Positions 5,854-30,574 of a stretch of 32,000 nucleotides of DNA are shown here, in pieces; position 1 is the first letter of the stretch, and each line of letters begins with the position of its first letter. Location: assembly GCF_000253055.1 (NCBI RefSeq), contig NC_016070.1, positions 750,001-782,000 of the forward strand, read 5' to 3'. The notes below the pieces were generated by a model. It searched no databases. It was not told the origin of the DNA and saw nothing but the letters and a program-made list of their open reading frames with translations. The DNA is from Thermoproteus tenax Kra 1. GTDB lineage: Archaea > Thermoproteota > Thermoprotei > Thermoproteales > Thermoproteaceae. Position numbers and translations under genes: made by a program.

Positions 5854-5880
5854 GACGAAAAAACAGCTGAGTTATATATA

Positions 5881-6300: not shown

Positions 6301-6362
6301 AAAAGGATATATTATATTCCTATTTAAAAGTTTCTCTATATTTTTCTATATAGTCTATCTTT

Positions 6363-7661
6363 TTATATATTTCTTAAGACTTGTTTAAGGGATTCTACAT
6401 CAGTGGAGTCAACCCGAATAGTGGGAAGCTCCGATTCGATAACGGAGTTGGATCCGCCTATTAACAACGTCTTTACCTCCTTGAAGGCCTCCCTCGCCTG
6501 CCTTAAGATCTCAGGGCTGACGAAATCGTCTTCTCCATCCGTTATTATTATCAGTTTGTAGTTCCTGAGCCCCGCGGTCTTGGAATCCATCACCGCGGTG
6601 TGGACGGCCGAGGTTATATCGGTGCCCCCTAACGGCAGAACCTTGAGCAAGGCCTTTATCACCTCCTTAACGTTGGTAAGCTGAGGGTACACCATCTGGT
6701 CGAAGAATCTGAGAATGACCTTTCTACTGTGTTTCATCAGTGCCACAGCCAGAGCTGTTGCCCAAGTTATCTTCTGCGTCATATCCATGGCAAAGCCATC
6801 GTACACCGAGTAGAACATGGAACCTGATTTGTCTACAAGGAGGTATATCTTCTCCCTCGTGTCCAAGGAATAGTCTCTTACGGAGAGAGATTTGGTCGCC
6901 AACTTGTAGGCGAATAAGGAGGGCGACGCCAGATATATAGCCTTGCTCAAGTTAGTGACCCTAGTTAAATCTGAGAAGCTCCTCAGATTCCTAACGCCCG
7001 AGGGGATGCCGATTCTTTCAACTATGCCTCCTTCATCGACATAAGGGTCTATTTTAGACAAGATCCTCACTAGAGACTCTAGGATCTTGGCCAGACGTGC
7101 CCTGTAGGGATCTATATCTACATCAAATAGTAGATCGGCAACCTCTTTACCTACATCATCCCCTAAAATCTTTGAGATATTTTTTCTTATTTTATCTAAA
7201 TTTTTTATGTTTCCCATATAGAATCTTAGTAAATTGGTTATTTCTTGCCGTAATGCTTGATTATTCATAAGCCTCTGGACATTTCTCTCATCGCCCTCCC
7301 TCATCCCTTGCACGGTACCTCGCTCAATACGTGACAACAAGCTGTTGTACGCTCTGAGCAGTTTAACGGAAGCAGACCGCGAGATCGTGTAGTTATATCT
7401 GCTCAACTTACTAACCTCTTGATATATATCCGTTGATAGATACGACTTAAGAAAAGTATACCAGAGCGCGCCCTCCTCAGAGGAGGGGCCGCTGGACAAT
7501 ATCGGTGTGCGGTAGTGAATGTAGAACGAGTCAGCTATATACTCAAAGGATATCTTGTTGAGCTTAATGGGGAGCCCCAGACGTTGGATATAGCGTATTA
7601 TCTCCTGCGCCCGCAACCTCGTCAGCTCGTCCGAGTAATCTACGTTGAGAAGGGCGCCCAC
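6363..7661 (-). CDS. von Willebrand factor A (VWA) domain protein, ViaA/CoxE-like partner of the adjacent AAA+ ATPase
   Basis: 432 aa with a GTG start 2 nt after the stop of the upstream ATPase gene. The C-terminal VWA domain has the MIDAS motif D-x-S-x-S (LLVDKSGSM) and IIITDGED. Confidence 0.8.
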   Translation of the reverse strand: MGALLNVDYSDELTRLRAQEIIRYIQRLGLPIKLNKISFEYIADSFYIHYRTPILSSGPSSEEGALWYTFLKSYLSTDIYQEVSKLSRYNYTISRSASVKLLRAYNSLLSRIERGTVQGMREGDERNVQRLMNNQALRQEITNLLRFYMGNIKNLDKIRKNISKILGDDVGKEVADLLFDVDIDPYRARLAKILESLVRILSKIDPYVDEGGIVERIGIPSGVRNLRSFSDLTRVTNLSKAIYLASPSLFAYKLATKSLSVRDYSLDTREKIYLLVDKSGSMFYSVYDGFAMDMTQKITWATALAVALMKHSRKVILRFFDQMVYPQLTNVKEVIKALLKVLPLGGTDITSAVHTAVMDSKTAGLRNYKLIIITDGEDDFVSPEILRQAREAFKEVKTLLIGGSNSVIESELPTIRVDSTDVESLKQVLRNI

Positions 7662-7663
7662 GC

Positions 7664-8776
7664 CTACAACTGGCTCCTTAGCATGCTTAGGGCATCCTTT
7701 ATCTCGGCCATCTCAGTCTGGAAGAATTTATACAAAGTAGGATCGGCGTAGGCCTTATCCATCAACTCCTCAGCCTCCCTCAGCTTTTCGCGCGCGATCG
7801 TCAGCGCGTTGTTTGCTATAAGGGCCTTTATCTCGTTTATTAAGTCGTATAGCGTCGATAGATTGCCGGGCATATGGGAAGACACAAAGGCCTCGTACTC
7901 GCTTAAATCCTCCTTGTCGTGGACTAGATACTTCAAGACCTTAATAGTGGCGGCCCTTATACTTGACGCATCCATATCGCTCGGCTTTATGCCCAATATT
8001 GTCAGATACGCCATAACATAGATTGGAACTTTCACCCTTGTCCTATTGGATATTACTACATGGTCTAGATAGGCCGCTATTAACGGTGAAACATGTTTTA
8101 CTAGTAATTCACTATTTTCATATACTATTTTATTTATATATTCATTTATTTTCTTTATATCATCCATTGTCATTATATGAATCATACGCTCGTACTCTTG
8201 CCTCAAGGCTAGCCCGGTCCTCAAAAGATCCTCGGTCTCCTCGGGCGATGCATACTTAGTGAAAGTCCTCAGAGGGAAGCGGTCATAGAGGGCTTGTAGC
8301 TCCTCCTCGTCGGGCACTCTGTTGGACGCCCCGAACACAGTCCACGTCTTTACTGGGACCACTGCGCCGCCATCAAATATAACTCTCTCGTTTAGTATTG
8401 TAAGGAGAGTGTTGAGGATGGCGCTCGATGCATTAAATATCTCGTCCAACAGAGCCACGTCTGCCTCCACGATAGAGTTGGCATATATCCTCTTCACGTT
8501 GCCCTTGAGCAACTCAACGACATCTATGGGGCCTATGATCTCCTCCAGCTCTGTAAACTTTGTCAATAGTCTGTAGAACCACCGGGCCTTGAGAAGCTTG
8601 GAGAGGGATGCCACCAACATGGTTTTGGCGGTGCCAGGAGGTCCTATCATAATATAGTTTTCTCTACTCAATATTGCTATAAGAGCTCCTGTAATTTCAT
8701 CTGAGAATTTATAGAAGTAAACATTAAGATATTGTCTGACCTTTGATACATCTTTGATCAAAGCATCTACCTCCAC
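7664..8776 (-). CDS. MoxR-class AAA+ ATPase, RavA-like
   Basis: 370 aa with Walker A GPPGTAKT and Walker B ALLDEIFNAS. The LNTLLTILNER and FGASNRVPDEEELQALYDRF segments closely resemble RavA/MoxR signatures. Confidence 0.85.
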   Translation of the reverse strand: MEVDALIKDVSKVRQYLNVYFYKFSDEITGALIAILSRENYIMIGPPGTAKTMLVASLSKLLKARWFYRLLTKFTELEEIIGPIDVVELLKGNVKRIYANSIVEADVALLDEIFNASSAILNTLLTILNERVIFDGGAVVPVKTWTVFGASNRVPDEEELQALYDRFPLRTFTKYASPEETEDLLRTGLALRQEYERMIHIMTMDDIKKINEYINKIVYENSELLVKHVSPLIAAYLDHVVISNRTRVKVPIYVMAYLTILGIKPSDMDASSIRAATIKVLKYLVHDKEDLSEYEAFVSSHMPGNLSTLYDLINEIKALIANNALTIAREKLREAEELMDKAYADPTLYKFFQTEMAEIKDALSMLRSQL

Positions 8777-9416: not shown

Positions 9417-10598
9417 TTAATTGACAGGCCCCAGGAATACCCAAGGCACCGGTTTGACAAACTGCGCGTTCAACAGATAGCCATCCCCTCTGATCCAGAC
9501 GTTGGGGAACTTATAGGAGCCGTTGATCAATATCTTAGACTGGCCGTTCGACACAGTTGGGGTGAGCCAGGTCCAGCTGGTCACAGTTCTCGGCAGTATG
9601 GCCACGGTGATAATCGGCGTGGGAGCCCCACTGGCGCCGACGAATGTGGCCGCCGGGCTCACTACGCCGTTGGCTGCGAACGCGTAGGCTCCTAGAGGGG
9701 CCATTCCATCAACGCCGGGCAGATTAAGCGTTGCGTAGTACACCAAGCTGAAGTTATAGGCCTTATAGGTCGAGTTGCCGACCTTCAGATAAGTGCCGGG
9801 AGGCACTACGGCAATGATGTTCCCTACTCTGACAGCGCCCCCCTCTGTGCCGTTGATCCAAGCCTCTGCTATCTCTAATGGGACAAGCCCGCTCTCTACG
9901 CCCGATATATTGACGGCCGGCTTGATTATGCTAAAGCTGAGCGGCCGCTCCGAGCTCTCTGCTACAAATACCCAAGGCACCGGTTTGACAAACTGCAGAT
10001 TGACTTGAACGCCGCCGCCAACGTTGTACCACTGGTCGACGAAGACGTAACGGCCGCCGACCAACGTCCCGTTGGAGAGCTGGCGATAGCCCAGCCAAGT
10101 CCAGCTAGTCCAGGTGCTGGGGATATAGGCCAGTGTTATTATTTGTCTCGGTTTCCCTGACGCGTCCACGAAGGTTATGCTAGGGCTCACTTGGCCATTA
10201 ACAGCGAAGGCGAATGCGTACACGGGCATCCCGCCGTCCGGCGCAAGCCCCACTCCCTTAAGGTTGTAGATCACCAGAGAGAAGTTATATGTCGCAAGCG
10301 TGGAGTTACCGACCAAGGCGTAGGTCCCCGGTCTTATTACTACGATGAGGGGACCCAGCCTGAGCGTGGCGCCCTTTGTGGCGTTGACGACTGTGGAGCT
10401 TGCAGAGACAGGCACTAACTCAGGCGTAGTAGTAGGGACGACCGTCTGAGTGTAGGTCTGGGTCACCGTCTGAGTATAGGTCTGTGTGGTAGTTGTGCTC
10501 TGGATCACCGTCTTGCTCGGGGCTGCATAGTAGCCTGCGATGAACGCAATTACGGCGACTACCACCGCCACTATTATTGTGGTAGTTGTTTTAGTCAT
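9417..10598 (-). CDS. Membrane-anchored surface protein with Thr-rich linker and two tandem ~177-aa paralogous domains
   Basis: The probable start is MTKTTTTIIVAVVVAVIAFIAGYY (ATG at 10598). A TQTYTQTV x2 linker follows. Two homologous domains each end in QFVKPVPWVF and share PGTY..VGNST..YNFSLV...AFA.NG.VSP..TFV.ASG..TSWTWL. Confidence 0.75.
   Translation of the reverse strand: MTKTTTTIIVAVVVAVIAFIAGYYAAPSKTVIQSTTTTQTYTQTVTQTYTQTVVPTTTPELVPVSASSTVVNATKGATLRLGPLIVVIRPGTYALVGNSTLATYNFSLVIYNLKGVGLAPDGGMPVYAFAFAVNGQVSPSITFVDASGKPRQIITLAYIPSTWTSWTWLGYRQLSNGTLVGGRYVFVDQWYNVGGGVQVNLQFVKPVPWVFVAESSERPLSFSIIKPAVNISGVESGLVPLEIAEAWINGTEGGAVRVGNIIAVVPPGTYLKVGNSTYKAYNFSLVYYATLNLPGVDGMAPLGAYAFAANGVVSPAATFVGASGAPTPIITVAILPRTVTSWTWLTPTVSNGQSKILINGSYKFPNVWIRGDGYLLNAQFVKPVPWVFLGPVN
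9437..9465. repeat. 29-nt perfect direct repeat (copy 1) marking the internal domain duplication
   Basis: atacccaaggcaccggtttgacaaactgc is identical to 9968-9996. The copies lie 531 nt (177 codons) apart. Confidence 0.9.
9968..9996. repeat. 29-nt perfect direct repeat (copy 2)
   Basis: Identical to 9437-9465. It encodes the (Q/N)FVKPVPWV end of each domain. Confidence 0.9.
10441..10488. repeat. 24-bp coding tandem repeat (2 units)
   Basis: accgtctgagtgtaggtctgggtc followed by accgtctgagtataggtctgtgtg. On the minus strand these encode the TQTYTQTV x2 linker of the surface protein. Confidence 0.85.
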
Positions 10599-10658
10599 GA
10601 CGTCTCCCCGTTGTACACATAAGTACTTTTTCCAAAAATATACCCAAATTTTTTCCAA

Positions 10659-11762: not shown

Positions 11763-12242
11763 TTATTTTTTAAGTGCAAACAATACAAAACCGACCACTA
11801 AAACAATGAAGCCTATAAACCCTAAGCCCAGCGACACCAGAGTCGCGAGTAGCGCGTTGGTCAACGACTGGCCTATCGGTATAGCCGCGTACTTGATGTA
11901 GACGTAGTTTGTGTGGTTGTTCACAAGGTATACTGTCACATTGGGAGCCACAGCGATCGCAGTTATATTGTCAACATTGCTCTCCACTACAGGCGACGAG
12001 GTGCCCGACTGGTAAACATATATGTGCTCTGATGAGTTAATTATGAGTATAACTGGATTTGGGAAAACAAGGCTGACGTTTTCGCCCGGCTTCAATGTCA
12101 CCGCCTCGCTTTTGTTCAACTGGCCCAACGCCTCGTTGACTACAAAGTTCAATTGTTTTGTCGGAGACGCCACAAGGAAGAGAGCTACGGCGATTGCCAC
12201 CAGTATGGCGCCGGCAATTATCACAAACAACGAGGCCCTCAT
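11763..12242 (-). CDS. Hypothetical membrane protein (N- and C-terminal TM segments)
   Basis: 159 aa with hydrophobic termini (MRASLFVIIAGAILVAIAVALFLV... and ...LLATLVSLGLGFIGFIVLVVGFVLFAL) flanking a sequon-containing middle part. Confidence 0.6.
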   Translation of the reverse strand: MRASLFVIIAGAILVAIAVALFLVASPTKQLNFVVNEALGQLNKSEAVTLKPGENVSLVFPNPVILIINSSEHIYVYQSGTSSPVVESNVDNITAIAVAPNVTVYLVNNHTNYVYIKYAAIPIGQSLTNALLATLVSLGLGFIGFIVLVVGFVLFALKK

Positions 12243-18817: not shown

Positions 18818-18985
18818 ATTTAAAACCTTATCTTAAAACTATGGCTAACATCTCATGAATACTCTAGTCGATATAGATAAATATATTTATATTTATTAAT
18901 ATGTATCAAACACATACTATAAACATACAATTGTGCTCGAACACTTTACAACGCAAAATTTATTTTATAGTCCCTCAATACTTTA
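18818..18985. promoter_or_regulatory. AT-rich divergent promoter region (thiolase operon / filament operon)
   Basis: A 168-bp spacer between divergently oriented genes that is visibly very AT-rich (I did not count it). It contains several TATA-like tracts, such as TTTTAAAT near 18820 and TTTATTTTATAG about 20 nt before the GTG at 18986. Confidence 0.5.
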
Positions 18986-20404
18986 GTGCAGGCCGTTGAA
19001 ATAGTCGTAGTCGGCTTCATTCTGGCATTCTTCGTAGCCCTCACTTTCTATATGTTCAATTCCATGGCCCCAAGGGCTCAGACAGCTCAAGCGGAGTTGA
19101 ACGTATTGGCTCAACAGATCCTCCAGAGAATAACGTCGTACTCGGCCTACAACCTCTCCAACGACATAGGAATAGCCGACCCGAACGCGCCGGGGTATCT
19201 AAGCGACTACGCTGTAGACTACTTGGCTATGGCGACAGCTCAGCTCTCGGGCTACCCAGCCTGTAACGTCTGGAACCCCAGCAGCACAGTGGCCCAGTAC
19301 GTGGGAGACACAGTATACATGGCCGGCTACGGCTATGTGATCCCGGGCTTGGTCAACGGAAACCTCAACCTCACGGCTATTGCGATCAACTTCTTCGGGC
19401 GCGAGTATGGGAGGTATGACGTGGAGATACAGATAAAGCCTCTGGTCAGGCTCGGCGTCTGTCCCTACGTCGTTATGCAGAACTACGGCGTCACGTTCGA
19501 GAACGCCTTAAGCCCTGTCTGTGCGCAGTTCTATTCTATTATGGGCGCCGGCCTTAAAAACGGCACGGTTTACTTGGTCGCGCGCGGCGCTGGGGCATAC
19601 CCCCAGGGCCAGGTGGCGTACACCGTCTACTACTGTACTACGTCTACTTGCTATCAGCCCTACACAGGGACGGCCACTCTAACGCCGCTGGTCCAGTCCG
19701 GCGGATATTACTATAGCTACGCCGTAGCGGCCCTCCCGCCCTATGTAAGTTTCTCTCAAATCGCCAGTCTAAGTGCGGCGCTCGTCGTCTATGCCCAAAA
19801 GGTGACCTACCCATACAGTGCCGGGTTCTATGTCTTCAACGCTACCTCGGTCTCCCTAATATATGGAGCTCCGTTCCCCGGCTCCGCGTCCACGACGCTC
19901 TACCTCATCCATGACGCCGACTACGTGATCCCCGGCTCCAATCTGCCGTGCGATGGAAGGCTGAGCTCGGCCTCGGGAAGACAGTCTTTGGGCATAAGGT
20001 ACTTGAGCTTGTATACAGGCCAAGGCTTTGTGATCTACGGCTCCAACATAGAGCTCGACCCCGGCACAGGCAACTCCCCCGTTAAGGTGCAACCCTGTAG
20101 CCAATGCACTACCTCGGCCCACTGTACGGCGTGTTGGGCGAGCCTGCCCACCGACACGTTGTTGGCGATCGCCTACGTCACTCCCAGCTCTAGCTCGGGC
20201 AAAATACCGAGCGCTGCCCTCGTCCCCATACCCCTCTTTCCGGCGCCTCCAGCCACCGACGTTGACGTCAAGACGTGGCTCAGATGGGGCTTTACTAAAA
20301 CGCCGAGCACCTATGCCTCATCGGCTTGGGGGGTCTTCAACTCGCTGACGACGACATATCTAGTCAATGTAACCGTCTACGAATATCCCTCGCCGCTCCC
20401 ATGA
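18986..20404 (+). CDS. Pilin/TadE-like N-terminus protein P1 (472 aa), extracellular, sequon- and Cys-rich
   Basis: GTG start. The N-terminus is MQAVEIVVVGFILAFFVALTFYMF, with Glu at position 5 followed by a hydrophobic helix. It contains many N-x-S/T sequons and a C-x2-C-x5-C-x2-C cluster. Its stop overlaps the next ATG (ATGA). Confidence 0.7.
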   Translation: MQAVEIVVVGFILAFFVALTFYMFNSMAPRAQTAQAELNVLAQQILQRITSYSAYNLSNDIGIADPNAPGYLSDYAVDYLAMATAQLSGYPACNVWNPSSTVAQYVGDTVYMAGYGYVIPGLVNGNLNLTAIAINFFGREYGRYDVEIQIKPLVRLGVCPYVVMQNYGVTFENALSPVCAQFYSIMGAGLKNGTVYLVARGAGAYPQGQVAYTVYYCTTSTCYQPYTGTATLTPLVQSGGYYYSYAVAALPPYVSFSQIASLSAALVVYAQKVTYPYSAGFYVFNATSVSLIYGAPFPGSASTTLYLIHDADYVIPGSNLPCDGRLSSASGRQSLGIRYLSLYTGQGFVIYGSNIELDPGTGNSPVKVQPCSQCTTSAHCTACWASLPTDTLLAIAYVTPSSSSGKIPSAALVPIPLFPAPPATDVDVKTWLRWGFTKTPSTYASSAWGVFNSLTTTYLVNVTVYEYPSPLP

Positions 20405-20844
20405 GGTGGATGATCGAGCTGTTGCTCGCCGTTATGTTGGTGGCCTTGGCGGTGTACGCGCTTACTATGATGCCCAAGAGCCCGGTCTCTACAACGATGG
20501 GCAGACAGAACGTGGAGACCGCCTACAATACTTTGCTCCAGCTGTCCCTCAACCCCTCCTTTTTGAGCTCGTTGGAGGGCAGCATATGCTCTCAGAACCC
20601 TCAAGCTGTCAAGGCAATGTTGGACTCAGCAATACCTCAGCCCTACATCTACAACTTCACGGTCTATCTCGCGGGGAGCTCCCCGCCGCCATGCCTCATA
20701 TGCGCCACATGGAATAGCAAGCTCCTATCGGTGGCCAGGCCGACGGGCTGGGCCGGCTCCACGGCGACATCCTCTGCCACAATAGCCGCAGTATTGCCCG
20801 ACGGAACTCAAGTGAAGCTCGTGCTCTATATAGGCAAGCCGTAA
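20401..20844 (+). CDS. Pilin-like protein P2 (147 aa)
   Basis: The ATG overlaps the P1 stop (ATGA). The N-terminus MRWMIELLLAVMLVALAVYALTMM is followed by a small Ser/Thr/Pro-rich domain. It is the smallest member, so it is a candidate structural subunit. Confidence 0.65.
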   Translation: MRWMIELLLAVMLVALAVYALTMMPKSPVSTTMGRQNVETAYNTLLQLSLNPSFLSSLEGSICSQNPQAVKAMLDSAIPQPYIYNFTVYLAGSSPPPCLICATWNSKLLSVARPTGWAGSTATSSATIAAVLPDGTQVKLVLYIGKP

Positions 20845-20879
20845 CGTAAAATATATATTTTTAGAGAAAGGCTCATGAA

Positions 20880-23800
20880 GTGAAGTTTAAGGGTCAGTGG
20901 ATAATACTCACAGCGCTCGCGGTCGTTATTGCAGTGGCCGCCATATATATGGCCTACGTCTCGTCAACTATAGTGCCGGTGGCCTCCATACAGAGGCCGG
21001 CGTATGGCATCATGAGCCAAGACTGGCCCGAGTTAGTTCAGCTCTTGGCAGGGTACGCGCAGTTCCTCGCGCAGAGCGGGGCCTCTAAGGCGTCTATAGG
21101 CGCTCTGGACGCCGGCCTCTACAACAACCTAGTGCTAGCTCATCCGGCGGACGCCTATTTTCAGCTCCGGGTAGCCCAGAGCTTTCTCGGCGCCGCTCTC
21201 TCCTCGGTCGAGCAGAGCTTGCTCCCGCTGGGCACCTTCATTACGGCCAACTTCACGATAGACCAGAGGGGCTTCGGAGGCACCCTTGGCCCATATCCAG
21301 CTGCTCTGAGGCTGAGCGACGCCTATAACTTTACCTATTGGATAAACAGCGGAGCTATGCAAGTCCTCTACGCCTACCGGCTCTATAGATTTGTAGTAAG
21401 CACGCAAGTGCCCGTGCAGACCGACTACGTTATAATATACTCAGCCGACGTCAGAAGGCCGACCTCGGTCGGAGAGTCCTACAGCGTGCCTGTCGAGGAT
21501 ATATTGAACTTGGCCAAGAGCGGGGGCGGATACGATGTGAGTCTGCTTAAGGACAGGATGTACCTCATCCTGGTCAACAACACAGCCTTGGAGCAAGCGC
21601 TCCAGTACCTCGCCAGTCCCGGCTGTACGCCGAGCGGGTTCAGGGTAAGGCTATCGAAGGCCTTCGTACAAATCCCGTGGTGGTCGGAGTATATAAGGTG
21701 CCCCTTCTGTCTGTTCGACTTCAAAATGCCCGCTGGGACTTTAACGGCGCCTGGATACTCAGACGAGGTCATGGTGGTGCTCTTCAGCCAGCCCACCCGG
21801 AGGATACAGTTGGCGTTAAACATACCGCTTATGTTGTACCTCTCCGGCATAAATCCCGCCGGCGTATCGCCTAGTTGTTACTCCGTTTTGAACAACCAAT
21901 ACTCGTTAACTCTAAGGGTAGACCCAACGCTGAACAACAACCCATATGCCGTGTATAATATAGGCGGAGCGGAGTACTTCTATAACGCAGCGGCCATGAG
22001 CGGTTGGCCCAGCTCCATAGTCTATAGTACGTGTCATCAGGTTGGGCCTGAAAACCAGCCGACTCCGATTGAGCAACTGGTCCCAACCTCAGTATACGGA
22101 AACGCCACCACCGGCTTGTTGTTGGGCGCGGTATATCCGCCTGACACATACGATGTTGGATATCAGATATGGACCAGCATGAGCGTGCCCCAGAGCTGGC
22201 CGGGCTTTCAAGTGAGGACTCTCATCAATGTGACTAGCATCGGCTCAGAGAAGATGGGCTATCTCGCGTTGTTCTGGGGAGGCTATGATGGAAGCACTTT
22301 CCCGTGGTGTGCAGACATGATAGCTGTACAGCCCGAGAGCTATCCGCCGACTTTTGTGTGGTCTTATCAGCCCCAAGGGTATTTAACGGGCCCGTGGCAG
22401 ACGTATTCTTGGCAATACGGCGGATCGTACGTACCTCTAAGCTCTAACAGATGGTACGTCCTCTCTATATCGGAGGCGTTACAGGGCAGTAACGTCGGCC
22501 AAGCATATTTGGCCGTCTACAAATTCCTATCAAACTCCTCTGGACCCATGACGCCCTATGTAGGACAGTGGGTCAACTTGGGCACTGCCCTGTATTCTTT
22601 CAATGTTGTGTTGGGCACAGACACTGAGGACTTCCCCCAGTCCGGGGCAACGCCTTGGACCGACGCAGCTATATACGACTTCTTGGCAGTTAGGCCTTGG
22701 GTATATCCGGAGCCTTCGGCCGTCTTGACTACCTTGGGCGCAGCACCGGTGCTTAGTCCGCCGAGACCTACAGTCATAGCTTGGGGCAGATACTCTCTGG
22801 CGAACGCCTCTGTGACGATGCTCGGCAATATCTCCCTGGCCTTGGTGACGGACCTCAATATAACCCAGAGGATAGTGGTGAACGCCTCGACGCGATATGT
22901 CGTGGCCCAGTACTACAGCCCGTTCTATGTTAAATACATCTACGGCGTTTTAGTCAAGTCCAACGTGCCCCGAAGCACGCTAGCGTCCTCTTTCACCCTC
23001 GTCTACAACTACGGCGGAGTCCTCTACAACTACACGTGCGGCGCATCGCCTATGTGCAACCAGACTCTCGTCACATACTATGGGTACTTCAACGGGGTAG
23101 ACAAGGCGTTGTTCAACGTGTCAGTGTTGGTCCCCCGCCACTCCAACTTCGCCGTAGTGCTCAACCTCCTCGGGGCGCAGATCGCTGTGAACAACCTCAC
23201 TGTGGTGCACCCGCAGGTGTACTATCTCTGGAGCGGCAACTCGCTCTACCTGGTCAACGTGGGCAATATGGACGCAGTCTTCTACTTCCCCTGGCAGTCG
23301 GGAGCGCCCGTAGTGGCCTCGATCTTCCCCAACGACGGCGTCTTCGGCGCAGCTATGGATATAGCGGGCAACGGCGGGAGTTGGACGCTTGTCATAGTGC
23401 CGGCTCAAAGCGCAGTTAACGTGACGTTTGCCCCCACATATGTCTCCCAGATACGTCAAGGCTTTCCAAGCGCATATTCGCCGCAGTGGGAGTTGCCCTA
23501 TATATCGGCGATGTCATTTCCCTCCACAAACTGCCGCATCTTACAAGTGTATTTCCCGTCAGAGTACACGGGCGATCACCTCGTACTAGTTCTTCCGCCC
23601 ATTGTACTGGCAAATTTAGGTTTCTCCAACTACCGGAGACTTGCCTTCTACATCTTCTCAAAGGGCTCTTGGGTATCTGTCCCATATGCCATGGCCTATT
23701 GGAACGACGTGTGGCTCCGCATAAATCAATACAGAGGTTGGTTTGCGTATAGAGGCTCTCTTATATCAGTATGTACCGGCGGATCTCCGACATCTATGTA

Positions 23801-24437
23801 TAATATTCTGGATATGTATATACCTAAAACAAGCGGTTCCTACGCCTTCAATCCGCCTATAGGCCTTTCGGCATATCCCAACGGGTTTGCTATAATTATA
23901 AATTTAACTGGAAGTATAATAAATTATGGAAGTCCTGAACAGTATCTTAATTATATTTATTTAGCTAATACTACGAATCCAAGTTATACTTGTATAGAAG
24001 GAACTTACGCCGGCCGGCTCTTGGAGATATGGAACGGGTTCGCTAGCGGTACTCCAGGTTGGACGGATTGGTGGAACCAGTACGCAAGCGTCTGCGGAGA
24101 TCAAAGCGTGTGGACCACGTACGGCTCAGGCGTTGAGACCTATTTCATAATAGCGCTCACGCCTCAATTTGCCAACTTCCACATTGCTACGGAATCTGGA
24201 AACATGCTCAATCCCTACAATATGTGGTGGTACAACGGGTGGCCCAACACGGCGTACAACCCCGCCCTATTTCAGACGACGCCGACATGTAGCGATCCTC
24301 AACAGTGCAACGGCCCTCTGTGGTCCTTCAATTACCTGGTGGTCAGTCCCACGTTGAGCTACGGAATTGATGTAATACCGTATATGTGGCCTCTGCCGTA
24401 CGTGTTATTAGACGGCAATATCTATCAGACGATATGA
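20880..24437 (+). CDS. Giant pilin-like N-terminus surface protein P3 (1185 aa)
   Basis: GTG start. The N-terminus is MKFKGQWIILTALAVVIAVAAIYMAY, a possible class III signal with K-G/Q. The rest is aromatic-rich (Y/W) with dozens of N-x-S/T sequons. No enzymatic motif was recognised. Its stop overlaps the P4 ATG (ATGA). Confidence 0.7.
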   Translation: MKFKGQWIILTALAVVIAVAAIYMAYVSSTIVPVASIQRPAYGIMSQDWPELVQLLAGYAQFLAQSGASKASIGALDAGLYNNLVLAHPADAYFQLRVAQSFLGAALSSVEQSLLPLGTFITANFTIDQRGFGGTLGPYPAALRLSDAYNFTYWINSGAMQVLYAYRLYRFVVSTQVPVQTDYVIIYSADVRRPTSVGESYSVPVEDILNLAKSGGGYDVSLLKDRMYLILVNNTALEQALQYLASPGCTPSGFRVRLSKAFVQIPWWSEYIRCPFCLFDFKMPAGTLTAPGYSDEVMVVLFSQPTRRIQLALNIPLMLYLSGINPAGVSPSCYSVLNNQYSLTLRVDPTLNNNPYAVYNIGGAEYFYNAAAMSGWPSSIVYSTCHQVGPENQPTPIEQLVPTSVYGNATTGLLLGAVYPPDTYDVGYQIWTSMSVPQSWPGFQVRTLINVTSIGSEKMGYLALFWGGYDGSTFPWCADMIAVQPESYPPTFVWSYQPQGYLTGPWQTYSWQYGGSYVPLSSNRWYVLSISEALQGSNVGQAYLAVYKFLSNSSGPMTPYVGQWVNLGTALYSFNVVLGTDTEDFPQSGATPWTDAAIYDFLAVRPWVYPEPSAVLTTLGAAPVLSPPRPTVIAWGRYSLANASVTMLGNISLALVTDLNITQRIVVNASTRYVVAQYYSPFYVKYIYGVLVKSNVPRSTLASSFTLVYNYGGVLYNYTCGASPMCNQTLVTYYGYFNGVDKALFNVSVLVPRHSNFAVVLNLLGAQIAVNNLTVVHPQVYYLWSGNSLYLVNVGNMDAVFYFPWQSGAPVVASIFPNDGVFGAAMDIAGNGGSWTLVIVPAQSAVNVTFAPTYVSQIRQGFPSAYSPQWELPYISAMSFPSTNCRILQVYFPSEYTGDHLVLVLPPIVLANLGFSNYRRLAFYIFSKGSWVSVPYAMAYWNDVWLRINQYRGWFAYRGSLISVCTGGSPTSMYNILDMYIPKTSGSYAFNPPIGLSAYPNGFAIIINLTGSIINYGSPEQYLNYIYLANTTNPSYTCIEGTYAGRLLEIWNGFASGTPGWTDWWNQYASVCGDQSVWTTYGSGVETYFIIALTPQFANFHIATESGNMLNPYNMWWYNGWPNTAYNPALFQTTPTCSDPQQCNGPLWSFNYLVVSPTLSYGIDVIPYMWPLPYVLLDGNIYQTI

Positions 24438-25132
24438 GAGGTCTCGAGGCTCTGGAGGTGGCTATCTTGCTCTCAATATCGCTGGCTATAATTTTCGCCG
24501 CAGTGCCCTACATAATTCAGAACATATTCCAACTGGAGGCAGGGCTTGAGGCCAAGAACGTGATAGCCTTTTTGACCTCTCTGGCGGACTCGTTGGAGTC
24601 AGACTTCGGCATGACCGGCGTCCAGAGGATGTATCAGCTGCCCAGCGCGTACTTTGGGACGTTCTACGTGAGGACGCCGCGCCTCTACGTCTCCATAAGC
24701 TGTGCGTCTCTGTCTGGAACCACGTCAACGACCTTCGTCTTCAGAGAGGCCGTTGTAGGCTATAACTCAAGCTACGCCGAGTTCGGAAACGCCATGTTGA
24801 GGGGTCTCACAGGCTCTCTGCTCGCCCCCATTGGGGAACCGGTCATCGCAGTGAACTCGACTTTCCCAAGCGCTGTGCGTCTCTATACTAGAGTCGTTTA
24901 CGTCAACGGCACATCATCTCTATATCTTTACACAATATCTGCATCCTTCATCCAGCAGGGAACAGGCGGGGCGCTGGCCTACGTGGTCGGACCTCTAAAC
25001 TCCACCTCGCTCACATGCGGCGGCACCGCCGCTGTGACAGTGTCGAGCAGATTGGGCTCTGCCACGGCCACCTTCAACAACGTCCAGACGGTGTACTTGG
25101 TCTGGAACAATGTCACACTAGTCTGGAAATGA
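24434..25132 (+). CDS. TadE/pilin-like protein P4 (232 aa)
   Basis: The N-terminus is MRG-LEALEVAILLSISLAIIFAAVPYII, which has a short basic leader, then Gly, Glu at +5 and a hydrophobic helix. There are ATGA overlaps at both ends. Confidence 0.7.
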   Translation: MRGLEALEVAILLSISLAIIFAAVPYIIQNIFQLEAGLEAKNVIAFLTSLADSLESDFGMTGVQRMYQLPSAYFGTFYVRTPRLYVSISCASLSGTTSTTFVFREAVVGYNSSYAEFGNAMLRGLTGSLLAPIGEPVIAVNSTFPSAVRLYTRVVYVNGTSSLYLYTISASFIQQGTGGALAYVVGPLNSTSLTCGGTAAVTVSSRLGSATATFNNVQTVYLVWNNVTLVWK

Positions 25133-25710
25133 GGGGCATATCAGCTCTCGAGGCCGCAATCCTTTTCGGCTTCCTCGCCCTAGTCTATATAGTTGCGGCC
25201 TATCTGGTCTGGCTGATATCCTACAACTACTTTAGGGATGAGGCATCTGTGACGGCCTCACTCATGGTGAAATATGTGGCGTCCCAAGTGGCGGATTTAA
25301 TGGCGTCCTCTCTAACGCCGGGTGTCAGCTCCATAAGCTACAAGCTATTTCTGCCCACCCAATTCCCCAATTTCGACGCCTATTCCTACTCGATAGCGCT
25401 TATTAACAACGCCACTTCGCCGGGGGCAGTCGCCCTTTACGTCTTAGCCAACTTCTCGGCATATAGGGGCTCCTTCTCGGCGTATGAGTACAACGTGGGG
25501 GCGTTTGCCTATGCGCTCAACGCCACTTTCGCTGGAGTCCAAATCTATGTCACCAACTTCGATAGAGCCATCGGCGGCTCCGCCTGTTTAGTGCCATCGC
25601 CGGTAGTTCCAGGAGCGTATGCGGTCAATTTAACTAAACCTGGTTGTGGAGCCCTCTGGTACGCGCCCACGCCGGCTAACTACAAGCTTCTTACTGTCGT
25701 CAGAGGCTAG
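25129..25710 (+). CDS. TadE/pilin-like protein P5 (193 aa)
   Basis: The N-terminus MRG-ISALEAAILFGFLALVYIVAAYLVW has the same architecture as P4. The ATG overlaps the P4 stop. Confidence 0.7.
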   Translation: MRGISALEAAILFGFLALVYIVAAYLVWLISYNYFRDEASVTASLMVKYVASQVADLMASSLTPGVSSISYKLFLPTQFPNFDAYSYSIALINNATSPGAVALYVLANFSAYRGSFSAYEYNVGAFAYALNATFAGVQIYVTNFDRAIGGSACLVPSPVVPGAYAVNLTKPGCGALWYAPTPANYKLLTVVRG

Positions 25711-25712
25711 CC

Positions 25713-26330
25713 GTGTGGTTGACGGATCCTCTAGAATGGCAGTATATATATACTCTGGCTAAATCCCTTCTCCCGGGTCTTTCGTTTCACAGAGACGAGG
25801 AGGCGGCGGAGCTGGCATCGAGGCTGGGAGGCCTTCCCATTGGCAAGCTGAGGGAATTCGATTGGACTAGGCCCGTCATCTATATGCCGCCCTTCAAGCG
25901 TATAGCCGAGGGCACAGTTGTAGTGGCAGTCGAAGGGCGCACGGCCAAAAAGTTGGCCGGGCTGGGCGTCAGACCTCACGTGGTCGTGACTGATCTAGAC
26001 TTTGAGCCAGACTACATAGACATAGGCCTTATCGCCGTTGTGCACGCTCACGGCGATAATATAGATAGGCTGGCTGAATATGCGCGCGGACTCCGCATAT
26101 ACACAGTCCAAACGCCGCCGAGGCCCAACACTTATAACGTGGGCGGTTTCACCGACGGAGATAGAGCGATATATCTAGCGATAGCCATGGGCGCCCGGGA
26201 GATAATAGTCAGCGGCTTCTACCCCGAGGAGCCCATTAAGCGGAACGACGAGGTCAAAAGGAGGAAGTTGGCGCTGGCTAAGGCGTTGATCAAGCGCCTA
26301 TCCTCACGGGCGTTGCTCAACATGATTTAA
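25713..26330 (+). CDS. DUF115 / MptE-like protein (6-hydroxymethylpterin diphosphokinase MptE / Maf family fold)
   Basis: 205 aa with a GTG start 2 nt after the P5 stop. The VVVTDLD...VVHAHGDN motif pair is typical of the MptE-like (DUF115) family. Confidence 0.65.
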   Translation: MWLTDPLEWQYIYTLAKSLLPGLSFHRDEEAAELASRLGGLPIGKLREFDWTRPVIYMPPFKRIAEGTVVVAVEGRTAKKLAGLGVRPHVVVTDLDFEPDYIDIGLIAVVHAHGDNIDRLAEYARGLRIYTVQTPPRPNTYNVGGFTDGDRAIYLAIAMGAREIIVSGFYPEEPIKRNDEVKRRKLALAKALIKRLSSRALLNMI

Positions 26331-26591
26331 TAGCATCGTCAACGATCTCTCCAGTTGCTCTAGCCGTCTCTCGTCATCTTCAAACCTTAGATACTCTTCA
26401 AGCGGCATCTTTAAATCCATCATGTCCTCGCCAGCTATATAGACACATAGAACGTTTTTACATACTGTTAGAGTGTATATGGTCCGGTAGGGGTACAGCT
26501 CGGTATAATACCAGAGGTAGCCGCCCATACCTCTCAGAGTCTCAACGACCCGAGGGTCTCTCCCAACCTTGGCGATGTCAAGTTTGTCCAC
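26304..26591 (-). CDS. Hypothetical protein (95 aa)
   Basis: GTG-start ORF convergent on the DUF115 gene (27-nt overlap) and divergent from the platform-protein gene. No family recognised. Confidence 0.35.
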   Translation of the reverse strand: MDKLDIAKVGRDPRVVETLRGMGGYLWYYTELYPYRTIYTLTVCKNVLCVYIAGEDMMDLKMPLEEYLRFEDDERRLEQLERSLTMLLNHVEQRP

Positions 26592-26676
26592 GCCTCCCTC
26601 TTGATTTATACATTTATATGTTCCTCGGAGGCGCTGCTCTGACGCAAAAAATATATTCTACATATAGAGACCGCTT

Positions 26677-28251
26677 GTGAATATTTACAATTTCCTCATG
26701 AAGGGTATTGAGAGAACCGATCTGGATCCGTTGAGATTCAGACAGACAATAAGGCTGTCTCTCCTGGGGGGTTCCGCCCTATTAGCCCTTGGTATATTCC
26801 TGACTCTTGTTAAGGCCTTTCCGATAGGTCCGCTGCTCCTTGGTCTCGGCGTATTCCTCCTCTTCATGCCTAGACTAATCATAAACGTGCGCGCCGCCTC
26901 CATAAGGGAGATGCTCAACATGGAGATCCCGTTCTTGACGGTGCTTGTGCAGATGACCTTTGCAACAAAGGCGCCTTTAGAGCTCGCCATACAGAGGATG
27001 ATGCGATATAGAGAGCTGCCGGGCATCAGAACGCTGGCTACCACTGCGTGGAATAATACGCGCATGCTCGGCATGGAGCCGCTAGACGGATTAAAGAGGG
27101 CCGTTGAGAAGCTGGCCCCTCAAAAGCTGATCTACCGCTTTAACTCACTCTACACAGCCCTAAGGGTCGGGGAGGACATAATAGCGAAGCTCGCCTTGTA
27201 TATGGACATGGACATGGTCGAGTTCTCCTCTGGTATGCAACGGAGGATGGACTCCTTGGTCTCGGCCATATCGGCAACAATAGTGGGCCTAGCAATGGTG
27301 TCTGTCACGGCTGTAGTCGTGGGCAGAGGCAACGCAGGCGTCTTTGTGTTGATGGGAGGCCTCCTACCTGCTGTGATGGGGGCCATAATGGGCATGATAA
27401 TCAACGTCCCGTTATTGAAGATGGACTTCAGAATATGGCCGCTTATCTTCGCCCTGCTGTCGGGCATAACGATGATAATATTGGGCTTCTTCCTGAACTT
27501 CGGCGTGTATACTCCTCTGGCCGCTGCAAGCGTATCCGCCCTAGGCTATTTTCTGACTAAGGAGAAGATAAATGCTAGATCATTTGAGAGAGGCTTCATG
27601 GACTTCTCATACGTAGTTTTGGACGAGCTGAAGCGTTCGCCCTCCGTGGTGCGCGCCATAGAGAACGCAGTAACTTACGGAAACTTCGGCGACTTCACGC
27701 CCAGAGCTGCATCTATGTTGACGGCTATTAAGTCCGGAATATCTGAGCTGGAGGAGGTGGTAGTTAGGGGAATGCAGCCGCTGATGGCCATCATCTCAAG
27801 GATCTTCTTCGACATCCACAGGCTGGGCACTCTTCCCCGCTCAACGATAGACCAACTTCAGAACTTTGTCGCAAAGCTCTTCGACTACAGAGAACAGCTA
27901 AGTAAGTCCTTGGGAATAGTGAGGTTGCTGGCCGTGCTCGGAGCCGCGATGGTGGCCTTCGTCAATGCATCTATGATCATAATGACCCAAGCCATGGCCG
28001 GCGTATCCGGCGGTGGCGCAGCGCCGGTTGCTGGCATGGCCGCCGGCGGCATAGGCATGAACTTCCTCTATCTAGCATTCGGCATGTTGGCCATAGGATA
28101 CTACTTCCTCTTCGCCAAGGTCAGCTTCTCAACGCGCGGAGGCCTTATATATCTCTCCATATTCTACATCTCCATGTTCCTCGTGATCACCGTCACAACT
28201 AGCGTATTAAAGCCGCCGAGCAGCTCCTCATCATCGTTAGGATTGCCATGA
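26677..28251 (+). CDS. FlaJ/TadC-like polytopic membrane platform protein (two T2SS-F-like domains)
   Basis: 524 aa. The start may be the ATG at 26698. Two cytoplasmic helical segments resemble T2SSF domains (EIPFLTVLVQMTFATKAPLELAIQRM...LGMEPLDGLKRAVEKLAP... and a second copy around SVVRAIENAV...). Each is followed by multiple TM helices. Its stop overlaps the ATPase ATG (ATGA). Confidence 0.75.
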   Translation: MNIYNFLMKGIERTDLDPLRFRQTIRLSLLGGSALLALGIFLTLVKAFPIGPLLLGLGVFLLFMPRLIINVRAASIREMLNMEIPFLTVLVQMTFATKAPLELAIQRMMRYRELPGIRTLATTAWNNTRMLGMEPLDGLKRAVEKLAPQKLIYRFNSLYTALRVGEDIIAKLALYMDMDMVEFSSGMQRRMDSLVSAISATIVGLAMVSVTAVVVGRGNAGVFVLMGGLLPAVMGAIMGMIINVPLLKMDFRIWPLIFALLSGITMIILGFFLNFGVYTPLAAASVSALGYFLTKEKINARSFERGFMDFSYVVLDELKRSPSVVRAIENAVTYGNFGDFTPRAASMLTAIKSGISELEEVVVRGMQPLMAIISRIFFDIHRLGTLPRSTIDQLQNFVAKLFDYREQLSKSLGIVRLLAVLGAAMVAFVNASMIIMTQAMAGVSGGGAAPVAGMAAGGIGMNFLYLAFGMLAIGYYFLFAKVSFSTRGGLIYLSIFYISMFLVITVTTSVLKPPSSSSSSLGLP

Positions 28252-29757
28252 GCGCCCGCGGCCTAGGCTTCAAAATAGAGCGATGTCCCGGCGTGCCTGT
28301 TGAAGAGTACGGCGTAGAGGGCGCCCGAATAACCATACATAAGTTCGAAGACGGCTACTGCTATTCGGTCAATTACGCCTTTCCCTATTCAGACAAGGTG
28401 GGCGAATACGTATACAAGATAGTCGAGTACCTCACGGCGAGACAAGTAGTGCGCCCCGATATGACCAGAGAGGAGTTAGGCAAGCTGATCGAGATGGCTA
28501 TGGCCGACGTGGGGGTACCGAAGCCTTTAAGGGCGCCGGTGCGTTTCTACGTCCAACTGGAGGCCGCAGACTACTCCTATCTGACGCCGCTGCTGTATGA
28601 TGTGAAGCTCGAGAACGTCAATATAAACGGGACCGATAATCCAATATACGTCGATCACAGAGATTATGGCTACAATATCAAGACGAACATAGTCCCCACC
28701 GACAAGGAGGTCATATTGAGAATTGTAAGTAGAGTCTATGCGGAGACCGGCAGACCGCTCAACGAGCAGTATCCTATTCAGGACACCTACCTCCGGCTTT
28801 CCAACGGCGCCCTATTAAGGTTCGCCACTGCGATGTCAAATAAGACCTCGCGCAATCCGCCGTATGTCTCAGTCCGTATCCAGCCTCCGGAGCCCATCTC
28901 TCCGACTAAACTCATAAAGAACAAGACCATCTCCGCTCTAGGGCTCGCCTATCTGTGGTATTTGTTCGAGAACCTATCTGTGGTATTTGTTCGAGAATCT
29001 GAAGTCTATAATGATAATCGGAGGCACTGGCTCTGGCAAGACCACGTTGTTGAACGCGTTACTAGTTCTACTGCCGCATAAACGTATAGCCGTAGCTGAG
29101 GAGACTCCCGAGATACGCCTGCCCAAGAGCTTCACAAATTCAGTGCTACTATTCACATCTCCATTATACGACTATCAGAAAAATCTGCCAGGCTCAGAAT
29201 CTGCTATATACCTAATAGACCTTGTCCGCTTCTTGCTCCGCGCGAGGCCGGACATCGTCGTCATAGGGGAGAGCCGCGGCCGCGAGATACACGAACTGAT
29301 CCAAGGAATCTTGACGGGACACGGCGGAGCCACTACGTTCCACGCCGAGGATATGGTGGAGGCGTTCATGAGAATGACTGGGGAGGCCATGGGCGTATCG
29401 CCCGAACACATCTCGGCGTTCAGCGCGGTGGCCGTAGTCAGAAAGTTCGATTGGGGAAGAAGAGTTACATCTCTGACCGAGATAGTTTGGCTTAGAGCGT
29501 ACCCCTTCCCTGCCTTAAACCGCATTAAGATCAAAGAGGAGGAGTTCGGTCTAGTGGAGGTGGGCACCTACGACCGTAATAAAGACACGTTCACGGTCGA
29601 TTTAAAACGCTCCTTCTGGCTCCAGAAGCTTGGAGGCGTTGAGGAGGTTATGGCGCGTGCCGAGCTGCTCCAAGCCTTAGCAGATAAAGGCGTTATAGAC
29701 GCAGAGGCCGTGGCGGAGGCCGTCAGACAGTATTACAGACTGAAGAGGAAGATATGA
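28248..29757 (+). pseudogene. FlaI/TadA/VirB11-family secretion ATPase, reading frame split by a 25-bp tandem duplication
   Basis: The N-terminal part (ORF 28248-29081) ends ...ISALGLAYLWYLFEN and then runs out of frame. The C-terminal part (ORF 28987-29757, in the +1 frame) reads (M)FENLKSIMIIGGTGSGKTTLLNAL (Walker A), then DIVVIGESRGREIHE (Walker B/Asp box) and TGHGGATTFHAED (His box). Deleting one 25-bp copy joins ...AYLWYLFENLKSIMIIGGTGSGKTT... in one frame. Confidence 0.85.
28948..28997. repeat. Perfect 25-bp tandem direct duplication (2 copies)
   Basis: cctatctgtggtatttgttcgagaa occurs at 28948-28972 and again at 28973-28997, with no mismatch and no spacer. Because 25 is not a multiple of 3, this causes a +1 frame change. 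Confidence 0.95.
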
Positions 29758-29972
29758 TACTATATGGTTCTCCGGAGGAGATAAGGGGAGCTTTAGAGGA
29801 TGAGGCCGCCAAACTTATGTCCTTAAAGGGGAAAGACCCACATCTTGATAAATATATAGATAATAAACTGAAAGTATTGAAAGAATGTTTTAATAAACTA
29901 AAAAATATCCATTCTAATTATATACAGATTATTGCGATTTCTTCGTGTGATATAATAGAATTAGGTCAATAG
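29754..29972 (+). CDS. Hypothetical small protein (72 aa)
   Basis: The ATG overlaps the ATPase stop (ATGA). The 3' two thirds are strongly AT-rich. The product is hydrophilic and helical-looking. No family recognised. Confidence 0.4.
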   Translation: MILYGSPEEIRGALEDEAAKLMSLKGKDPHLDKYIDNKLKVLKECFNKLKNIHSNYIQIIAISSCDIIELGQ

Positions 29973-30061
29973 TTTAGCCTCCAGGGTTTGGGCTTTAGCT
30001 GTTGTATCAAGGACCCTCTAGGCGTCCATTAATATATATATTATACTTTAAGCCTATAGTT

Positions 30062-30574
30062 ATGAACTTCGAGATATATCCAGCGTTGCTGATAGCTGTT
30101 TTCACGGCATTAGGCGGCTATATAATAAGAGACCTACAAGCGCTATCGATACTGGTAGCCCTCTCCTCGGTCGCGGCCTTTCTGTTGGCTATATTATTCA
30201 ACGCACCTGCGGCGGTCTTAGGTCTCCTTGGCCTGACTGTGGCGGCCGTGAGGATAATACGAAGGCCGGAGCTCAGAACTTGGAGGCAGAGGATATATAG
30301 ATCGAGGAGGAGACTCGAAGAGCTTGAGGAAATGACAAAACAGCTTTCCCGCATCCATATAATGGACCTAGTTCCGGCGGGATCCAAAAGGGCCATCCAT
30401 CCTAAGTTGGTCGAACTGGTCGATATGGCCGATAAAGCTACATCGTTGGGCTACCAAGTCTCAGAGCCTCAGTGGCTGAAAATCCTGAGAACATATAGGA
30501 GACTACTAGGTTCGCAATTCGAGGCCGAGGCGACGACTATAGTGGGCGAAACCGACGTCTTCGAGCTCGAGTAG
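30062..30574 (+). CDS. Hypothetical membrane protein
   Basis: The start is set at the ATG at 30062 (MNFEIYPALLIAVFTALGGYII), which lies about 20-30 nt after a TATATATATTA tract. It has 2-3 N-terminal TM helices followed by a charged cytoplasmic tail. Confidence 0.55.
   Translation: MNFEIYPALLIAVFTALGGYIIRDLQALSILVALSSVAAFLLAILFNAPAAVLGLLGLTVAAVRIIRRPELRTWRQRIYRSRRRLEELEEMTKQLSRIHIMDLVPAGSKRAIHPKLVELVDMADKATSLGYQVSEPQWLKILRTYRRLLGSQFEAEATTIVGETDVFELE

Follow-up and report, generated by a model that had tools for sequence, protein, structure and literature searches.

The window analysed here, the 32,000 nucleotides of Thermoproteus tenax Kra 1 between positions 750,001 and 782,000 of NC_016070.1, includes a gene cluster, TTX_0887–TTX_0898, that is probably the T. 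tenax copy of the type IV pilus system known in Thermoproteales as ‘subclade 4E’. In this assignment, an assembly module, comprising a platform protein, an ATPase and two further proteins, stands beside an accessory module of five pilin-like proteins, termed P1 to P5 (TTX_0887–TTX_0891), and the major pilin and its prepilin peptidase are encoded in trans. The type of system is already known. In 2011, the genome paper counted TTX_0887–0898 among three operons putatively encoding type IV pili (PMC3189178), the Thermoproteales subclade 4E system, a member of the TACK-specific clade 4, was described in 2016 (Makarova et al. 2016, PMC4858521), and the cognate filament, the Pyrobaculum arsenaticum pilus, was solved by cryo-electron microscopy in 2020 (PDB 6W8U; PMC7347861) and is the receptor of virus PFV2. 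A 2026 preprint connects subsystem 4E to this pilus (Sivabalasarma & Albers 2026). The preliminary description of the locus, which had taken the system to be undescribed, was superseded in this respect. The residual interest of the locus lies in what the five accessory proteins may do in a crenarchaeal pilus, in the duplication within the ATPase gene and in an alternation of orthologues between a leader peptide and none.

Assignment to subclade 4E

Gene numbers were assigned by adding 750,000 to the window coordinates, which reproduced the published coordinates of TTX_0886–TTX_0901, and P3 showed 100% identity to a T. tenax protein. The arCOG labels were taken from the same annotation table of the genome paper (PMC3189178). 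The putative arCOG05475 minor pilin, which is the 4E ‘signature’ (PMC4858521), is P1 at this locus, and the small cytoplasmic protein of arCOG08085 and the membrane protein that were linked to 4E in the same work are orf72 and TTX_0898, respectively. The major pilins of 4E systems, arCOG03739 and arCOG03740, are mostly encoded by stand-alone genes (PMC4858521), and an arCOG03740 pilin was found in trans in T. tenax.

Across its whole gene set, the locus has arCOGs 05475, 07433, 07434, 05474, 05473, 01808, 01818, 08085 and 05458 in common with the 4E system of the P. arsenaticum pilus, as well as a stand-alone arCOG03740 pilin homologous to Par_PilA and a P1–P5 order that is that of Pyrobaculum-like loci. 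It differs from Pyrobaculum in that the accessory and ATPase/platform operons are adjacent, with an MptE-like gene pair between them, whereas they are split in Pyrobaculum. Moreover, the T. tenax ATPase gene carries a 25-bp duplication, and several orthologues differ in a three-residue leader. The preliminary description was right to see in it a crenarchaeal type IV filament locus that differs from those of the Aap, Ups and archaellum systems, and to ascribe to it a FlaI-like ATPase, a FlaJ/TadC-like platform and subunits resembling pilins.

Major pilin and prepilin peptidase

Inspection of the open reading frame (ORF) listing and a class III signal scan yielded neither a short pilin nor an A24 peptidase within 18986–30574, as had been reported earlier for 18986–29972, and the class III scan of the window returned no Flp-type small hydrophobic ORF. 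The pilin was traced through Thermoproteus sp. AZ2, in which a 138-residue class III pilin is encoded directly after P5. With this protein as the query, the 132-residue T. tenax protein P0043 was retrieved, whose N-terminus reads MKG↓LTSIELAILL (the arrow denotes the cleavage site here and below) and which matches the P. arsenaticum pilin of PDB 6W8U at E=4.7e-14. Since the mature chain of 6W8U starts with MTSLE, which aligns with LTSIE of P0043, cleavage was placed after M-K-G and the conserved Glu at +5. Against PF04021, P0043 scored 18 bits, the cut-off being 23.7 bits. The annotation table lists two arCOG03740 pilin genes, TTX_0846 and TTX_1067 (PMC3189178), of which the latter fits P0043 in length. 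As for the peptidase, which it had been proposed to seek elsewhere in the genome, the genome paper gives TTX_0979 as a candidate (arCOG02299; genome positions 847837–848421, 585 bp; PMC3189178), approximately 68 kb downstream of the locus.

That the locus itself has neither a short pilin nor a peptidase is the normal layout of a 4E system and no anomaly, and the ‘unusual subunit set’ that had been proposed dissolves into one typical of 4E, with the arCOG03740 pilins TTX_0846 and TTX_1067 and the candidate peptidase TTX_0979 encoded elsewhere. Workers on T. tenax must accordingly seek the major pilin and the peptidase outside the locus.

These findings bear directly on the earlier view of the locus as Epd/Tad-like, namely, a self-contained adhesion filament built of P1–P5 only, which would do without a conventional major pilin and possibly also without a peptidase of its own. 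The lack of both genes within 18986–30574 would fit such a filament, as would an ATPase detectably similar to CpaF/TadA and an S+3/E+5 pattern that recalls the QxSxEF motif. The Epd system of Methanococcus maripaludis (clade 1) and Tad/Flp systems do share with the locus archaeal-type type IV filament machinery, multiple minor pilins and a distantly similar ATPase. However, the motif resemblance of P1–P5 is partial and confined to S+3/E+5, and none of them showed a QxSxEF/PF04021 match (E≤1) or matched Flp or TadE/F/G (PF07811). The dedicated peptidase of Epd pili, EppA, has nine transmembrane segments, and the T. tenax candidate gene measures only 585 bp. EppA is confined to clade-1 organisms (PMC4858521), whereas the locus belongs to clade 4 (4E) by published assignment, also for its ATPase, which is nearer to GspE2/FlaI than to CpaF; no TadE, Flp or Class_IIIsignal Pfam match was obtained. 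In addition, the T. tenax genome has arCOG03740 pilin genes and a candidate A24 peptidase gene outside the locus, a classical pilin of ~130–150 residues lies beside P1–P5 or a few kb away in AZ2 and Pyrobaculum-like loci, and a homologous pilin forms the observed P. arsenaticum filament. We give the self-contained filament hardly any credence, and the Epd/Tad label was abandoned in favour of a 4E system supplied with its pilin in trans.

Accessory proteins

Gene calls and junctions were taken from the ORF listing and from direct reading of the sequence. They bore out the five consecutive genes with pilin-like hydrophobic N-termini that had been described at the lengths given in Table 1: the genes are co-directional on the plus strand, and each product has one hydrophobic segment, located at its extreme N-terminus. 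The Lys/Arg/Asp/Glu (KRDE) content is 8–9% in each of P1–P5, compared with 22–32% in the cytoplasmic neighbours, and the proteins are rich in NxS/T sequons and cysteines. Judged from the translations, their composition is that of extracellular proteins.

An early Glu had been noticed in four of the five proteins and found lacking in P3, and the orthologues agree on both counts. The residue is kept as M-Q-S/A-I/V-E in P1, M-R-W-x-x-E in P2, MRG↓LEALE in P4 and MR[GS]↓IxAIE in P5; P3 orthologues start with M[KR]G↓QW and lack Glu5 in every instance. A class III signal, with a short basic leader, Gly or Ala at −1 and a hydrophobic helix, is present in P3, P4 and P5. Their leader is the three-residue M-[KR]-G of the major pilin and is conserved across Thermoproteus orthologues (MKFKG in T. 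tenax P3). P4 and P5 share the Glu+5 register of the major pilin, with which the N-terminus of P4 aligns in register, and P5 is a distant paralogue of P4 over the first ~80 residues (BLASTP E=4e-6). When the P1 family was compared with the P4 family and the major pilin by hhalign, the N-terminal helix alone was aligned, with a probability of 3–9%, and this alignment informs on register only.

The P4 family is small: a set of 1.84 billion (1.84e9) proteins contains only 10 clusters of it at 50% identity. An AlphaFold2 model of P4, computed from a 10-sequence alignment, had a predicted local distance difference test score (pLDDT) of 91 and a predicted template-modelling score of 0.81, and encompasses a helix at residues 3–56 followed by an all-beta domain. 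This predicted structure is of classic pilin architecture, and it is on this architecture that the assignment of a pilin fold rests.

P3 is the most divergent of the five proteins, with 36% identity to its counterpart in strain AZ2, compared with 60–70% for the neighbouring genes. Its residues G5, Q6 and W7 are invariant among orthologues, and the N-terminal ~100 residues are the best conserved, the remainder being fast-evolving. As the largest member, devoid of Glu5 and the most divergent, P3 is likely an exposed adhesin or tip subunit. Pyrobaculum pili of this kind serve as virus receptors, so that adhesins like P3, with their rapid evolution, could be relevant to virus–host biology.

Conservation of gene order

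Homologue searches with P3 and P1 returned only Thermoproteus among the matches listed, and not the Pyrobaculum homologues that the genome paper reports, and a profile search of genome contigs with the P3 alignment, for which very specific patterns were used, likewise returned only Thermoproteus. A metagenome scan based on the P4 alignment supplied the Pyrobaculum-like loci. More than 20 other loci have the five genes in the same order, at 26–77% identity, and because of this recurrence the grouping of P1–P5 cannot be due to chance.

Across Thermoproteus, the P1–P5 order is kept, with the ATPase operon adjacent or within ~8 kb. The Thermoproteus metagenome-assembled genomes (MAGs) L004 and L006 have the gene order of T. 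tenax together with an intact ATPase. The platform gene of T. uzoniensis and strain CP80 is inverted and ~7.7 kb upstream, presumably together with the ATPase operon. In AZ2, the ATPase operon is inverted and adjoins the P1–P5 operon. On Pyrobaculum-like contigs, the order P1-P2-P3-P4-P5 is kept at 26–43% identity, genes for an ATPase, a platform protein or MptE are lacking within 10 kb of P1–P5, and a major pilin gene is often located a few kb upstream. Such a split between accessory and machinery operons is the documented norm for 4E. The synteny expected in the preliminary description was thus found within Thermoproteus; outside this genus, P1–P5 lie apart from the ATPase and platform genes, a finding that it had named as speaking against its own reading and that occurs here in part.

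Two observations were made on individual loci. The AZ2 orthologue of P1 (L001/L007, 8238–9549) is split into two frames, with calls of 325 and 86 residues, owing to either a frameshift or an assembly error. The Pyrobaculum-like metagenome contig L023 (240–4903) has three genes upstream of the P1–P5 operon, which encode a major pilin with an N-terminus nearly identical to that of the 6W8U pilin, a pilin paralogue that starts with MSSLEV and has no possible leader, and a 937-residue protein that carries a signal at its N-terminus and a membrane anchor at its C-terminus.

Proposed mechanism and comparison with other systems

In the mechanism proposed for the 4E system of T. tenax, the assembly module would be formed by the platform and a FlaI/GspE2-like hexameric ATPase, together with the arCOG08085 protein and the arCOG05458 protein with its three transmembrane segments. 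The filament would be built by the stand-alone arCOG03740 major pilin (MKG↓LTSIE...), encoded in trans and processed by the A24 peptidase, also encoded in trans. P1–P5 would be extracellular proteins anchored by a pilin-type N-terminal helix, of which P3, P4 and P5 would be cut after M-[KR]-G by the peptidase of the major pilin. Together they would make up a complex of minor pilins by which the filament is primed and/or capped, with P3 as the exposed adhesin, and the machinery would draw subunits out of the membrane and insert major pilin below the complex.

The analogy of a tip complex comes from those of the GspK/PilY1 type. Like FimU-PilVWXE plus PilY1 of bacterial type IVa pili and GspH-I-J-K of the type II secretion system (T2SS), the locus has four to five co-transcribed, unequal pilin-like proteins beside a separate major pilin, as well as a large, fast-evolving putative adhesin. 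The largest member, P3, is devoid of Glu5, as is GspK of the T2SS. The bacterial complexes have no detectable sequence or fold similarity to P1–P5, so that the likeness would be functional only.

Among archaeal systems, the Aap, Ups and bindosome (Bas) systems of Sulfolobales (clade 4A/4I) belong to the same broad ATPase/platform clade, the best NCBIfam match of the platform, below its cut-off, is UpsF, and the ATPase matches BasE and FlaI. In contrast to the present locus, theirs are simple, with an ATPase, a platform and one or two PilA-type pilins and no five-gene accessory set (Makarova et al. 2016, PMC4858521).

Several points weigh against the assignment as a whole or against parts of it. 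P1 and P2 are devoid of a canonical [KR]-[GA] cleavage site, and Pfam and NCBIfam scans of P1–P5 returned no pilin family, TadE and Class_IIIsignal included, even at E≤1. A Foldseek search of the P4 model against the PDB gave no significant match (best E=5e-3, with a template-modelling score below 0.2). The AlphaFold2 model of P3, computed from a nine-sequence alignment, was unusable at a mean pLDDT of 43, and Foldseek found nothing below E=0.02 for it in the PDB. The P1–P5 operon does not adjoin the ATPase and platform genes in T. uzoniensis, CP80 and all Pyrobaculum-like loci, and because of this separation the pairing of the two modules rests on co-occurrence and the literature. The proposed link of P1–P5 to a filament draws on genes and sequence, and the placement of the ATPase in clade 4E follows from the published arCOG01818 label and from context. 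Finally, a tip or priming position of the P1–P5 complex is suggested by likeness to bacterial minor pilins, and comparable archaeal minor pilins, those of clade-1 systems, were drawn near the pilus base (Makarova et al. 2016, PMC4858521).

Some of these points would equally be explained if P1–P5, or at least P1 and P2, were uncleaved, N-terminally anchored surface proteins of an adhesion or S-layer-associated complex that merely lie near a pilus operon in Thermoproteus. Such proteins would need neither the cleavage site that P1 and P2 lack nor the leader that is missing from P1, they would match no pilin family and no solved pilin structure, and their operon could well lie apart from the ATPase and platform genes, as it does in many genomes; the FlaFind list of the genome paper also flagged none of TTX_0887–0891 (PMC3189178). 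However, the pilin-specific Glu is found in the register of the mature major pilin across genera, P3–P5 carry the M-[KR]-G leader of the major pilin, the modelled 54-residue N-terminal helix and beta domain of P4 are pilin-like, and in AZ2 and Pyrobaculum-like loci pilin genes occur close to the operon. We consider such surface proteins unlikely, and P1–P5 most likely act as the minor-pilin/adhesin set of the 4E pilus.

Assembly machinery and the ATPase lesion

The ATPase gene had been described as frameshifted. The frame break is real, and the published annotation likewise splits the gene into TTX_0895 and TTX_0896 (PMC3189178); its nature is a perfect 25-bp tandem duplication at 28948–28997, before the Walker A codons. 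Programmed frameshifting was rejected, given that relatives have one copy of the 25-mer, as found in three of them, and one continuous ORF. We found no earlier report of the duplication.

Removal of one 25-base copy restored an intact 494-residue protein, which shows 94.5% identity over 493 residues to the intact genes of MAGs L004 and L006. The repaired ATPase matched T2SSE (PF00437) at 1.8e-26, and was closer to archaeal GspE2 (PDB 2OAP; 2e-38, 135 bits) than to FlaI (1e-30, 110 bits) and CpaF (6e-25, 91 bits). Among NCBIfam models, BasE and FlaI scored above TadA. For the platform, the best NCBIfam matches were UpsF (4e-10), BasF (1e-5) and ArlJ (2e-3), all far below the cut-offs. It had no Pfam T2SSF match, and BLASTP of its two halves against each other revealed no internal repeat, so that the earlier designation as a ‘two-domain T2SSF’ protein could not be demonstrated by sequence; the published annotation assigns it to arCOG01808 (TadC). 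Of the hidden Markov model searches that had been proposed, that of the ATPase gave a T2SSE match upon repair, and those of P1–P5 for TadE and of the platform for T2SSF gave none.

The lesion raises the prospect that the whole locus is a decaying remnant in T. tenax Kra1 and that the pilin-like genes are functionless in this strain, for which an ATPase broken by a duplication absent from relatives, and split in the published annotation, would speak. Yet the other genes, namely, P1–P5, TTX_0898 and those of the platform and orf72, are intact ORFs of full length, whose alignments with their orthologues run from one end to the other, and two other type IV pilus ATPase loci of T. tenax might act in trans. 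Because the lesion is single and the repeat perfect, the duplication was judged to be recent and in principle reversible. A remnant is thus a very improbable explanation, and the locus is better regarded as a 4E system with a recent defect. In the culture that was sequenced, the pilus system probably does not work, barring a reversion of the duplication or the substitution of another ATPase. Studies of T. tenax Kra1 by electron microscopy or mass spectrometry should consider that the ATPase of the 4E system is broken in the reference sequence.

Leader peptides

Leader states were read from the DNA upstream of each orthologue. In T. tenax P1, a stop codon is found six codons upstream, with no intervening start codon, and the protein has no leader peptide. 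Nine Thermoproteus orthologues of P1 start with M-[QE]-[SA]-[IV]-E, and those of Pyrobaculum-like loci with (GTG)M-R-G↓L-E-S-I-E. The reverse distribution was observed for P4, with MRG↓LEALE in Thermoproteus versus stop-G-I-D-ATG M-Q-S-L-E-L in Pyrobaculum-like loci, and for P5, with MRG↓ISAIE versus M-R-S-L-E. P2 is invariant as M[RK]W[VIL][LI]EL, with Glu at position 6, and has a stop codon two codons upstream in Pyrobaculum-like loci. In all leaderless cases, the initiator Met aligns with mature position +1 and Glu keeps position 5, in agreement with the hhalign register, the statistics of which are weak.

It is possible, and we advance it only tentatively, that one orthologous set alternates between the three-residue M-[KR]-G leader and no leader, the latter proteins being ‘born-mature’ with their Met at mature +1. 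If born-mature proteins really enter pili, the subunits of type IV filaments in this lineage would not depend on processing by prepilin peptidase, and the leader switch, should it hold for the proteins themselves, would amount to a natural experiment on the need for class III cleavage before incorporation into pili. A text search of the literature for the wording ‘leaderless pilin’ returned nothing, which does not prove novelty.

Locus layout and neighbouring genes

The features of the locus are listed in Table 1. The ATGA overlaps that had been reported at P1/P2, P3/P4, P4/P5, platform/ATPase and ATPase/orf72 were all readable in the sequence (5/5). TATA-like elements precede the genes of P1, P3 and the platform, and suggest, if they function as promoters, three leaderless transcripts, P1–P2, P3–P5 and platform–ATPase–orf72. 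The platform/ATPase operon is separate, as previously described, and longer than had been thought: orf72 and TTX_0898 are conserved after the ATPase in L004 and L006, and because TTX_0898, beside orf72, belongs to the conserved machinery operon, the end of the unit was moved from 29972 to 30574.

Table 1. Features of the TTX_0887–TTX_0898 locus, with positions in the window.
Feature	Position	Strand	Description
TATA-like element tattttata	18961–18969	+	~17–25 nt upstream of the P1 GTG start; read from the sequence
P1	18986–20404	+	TTX_0887; arCOG05475; 472 aa; GTG start; 10 Cys; N-terminus M-Q-A-V-E
P2	20401–20844	+	TTX_0888; arCOG07433; 147 aa; N-terminus M-R-W-M-I-E plus hydrophobic helix
TATA-like elements	20855–20863 (before P3); 26652–26660 (before platform gene)		~17–25 nt upstream of the GTG starts
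P3	20880–24437	+	TTX_0889; arCOG07434; 1185 aa; class III-type signal MKFKG↓QWIIL; no Glu5
P4	24434–25132	+	TTX_0890; arCOG05474; 232 aa; MRG↓LEALE; Glu at +5
P5	25129–25710	+	TTX_0891; arCOG05473; 193 aa; MRG↓ISALE; Glu at +5
MptE-like Rossmann enzyme	25713–26330	+	TTX_0892; PF01973 (E=8.7e-12)
orf95	26304–26591	−	TTX_0893; arCOG05589; small charged protein of 95 aa; convergent with the MptE-like gene
Platform	26677–28251	+	TTX_0894; arCOG01808; TadC/FlaJ family; 524 aa with 7 or more hydrophobic segments
ATPase	28248–29757	+	TTX_0895 + TTX_0896; arCOG01818; FlaI/GspE2-type; two frames, disrupted
25-bp tandem duplication	28948–28997	+	Perfect; 2.0 copies; just upstream of the Walker A codons
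orf72	29754–29972	+	TTX_0897; arCOG08085; small cytoplasmic alpha+beta protein
TTX_0898	30062–30574	+	arCOG05458; membrane protein; 3 hydrophobic segments; charged C-terminal tail

The MptE-like gene and orf95 adjoin the locus in all Thermoproteus loci, even where the ATPase operon is inverted or moved, and are absent from Pyrobaculum-like loci; by their distribution, they are probably not part of the pilus system. PF01973 also occurs in Maf flagellin glycosyltransferases. A role of the MptE-like protein as a pilin-modifying enzyme was considered and rejected, since the adjacency is limited to Thermoproteus and the gene is absent from Pyrobaculum-like loci.

Elsewhere in the window, the sole other class III-like N-terminus is that of TTX_0879 (11763–12242, minus strand), a membrane protein of 159 residues that starts with MRA followed by a strongly hydrophobic stretch and has neither Glu5 nor a family match. 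TTX_0876 (9417–10658, minus strand) is in the FlaFind-positive list of the genome paper, where it is labelled ‘fragment of inactivated transposase’, and is given in the main annotation table as a conserved hypothetical protein of arCOG06041; it had no Pfam match here. The block TTX_0870–0873 (4624–8776, minus strand) has a guanine–cytosine content of 0.42–0.47, compared with ~0.53 elsewhere, and its products comprise one DsbG-like, one CBS-domain and one vWA-domain protein together with a MoxR AAA+ ATPase, the last of which matches PF20030, a domain of the ‘MoxR-vWA-beta-propeller ternary system’.

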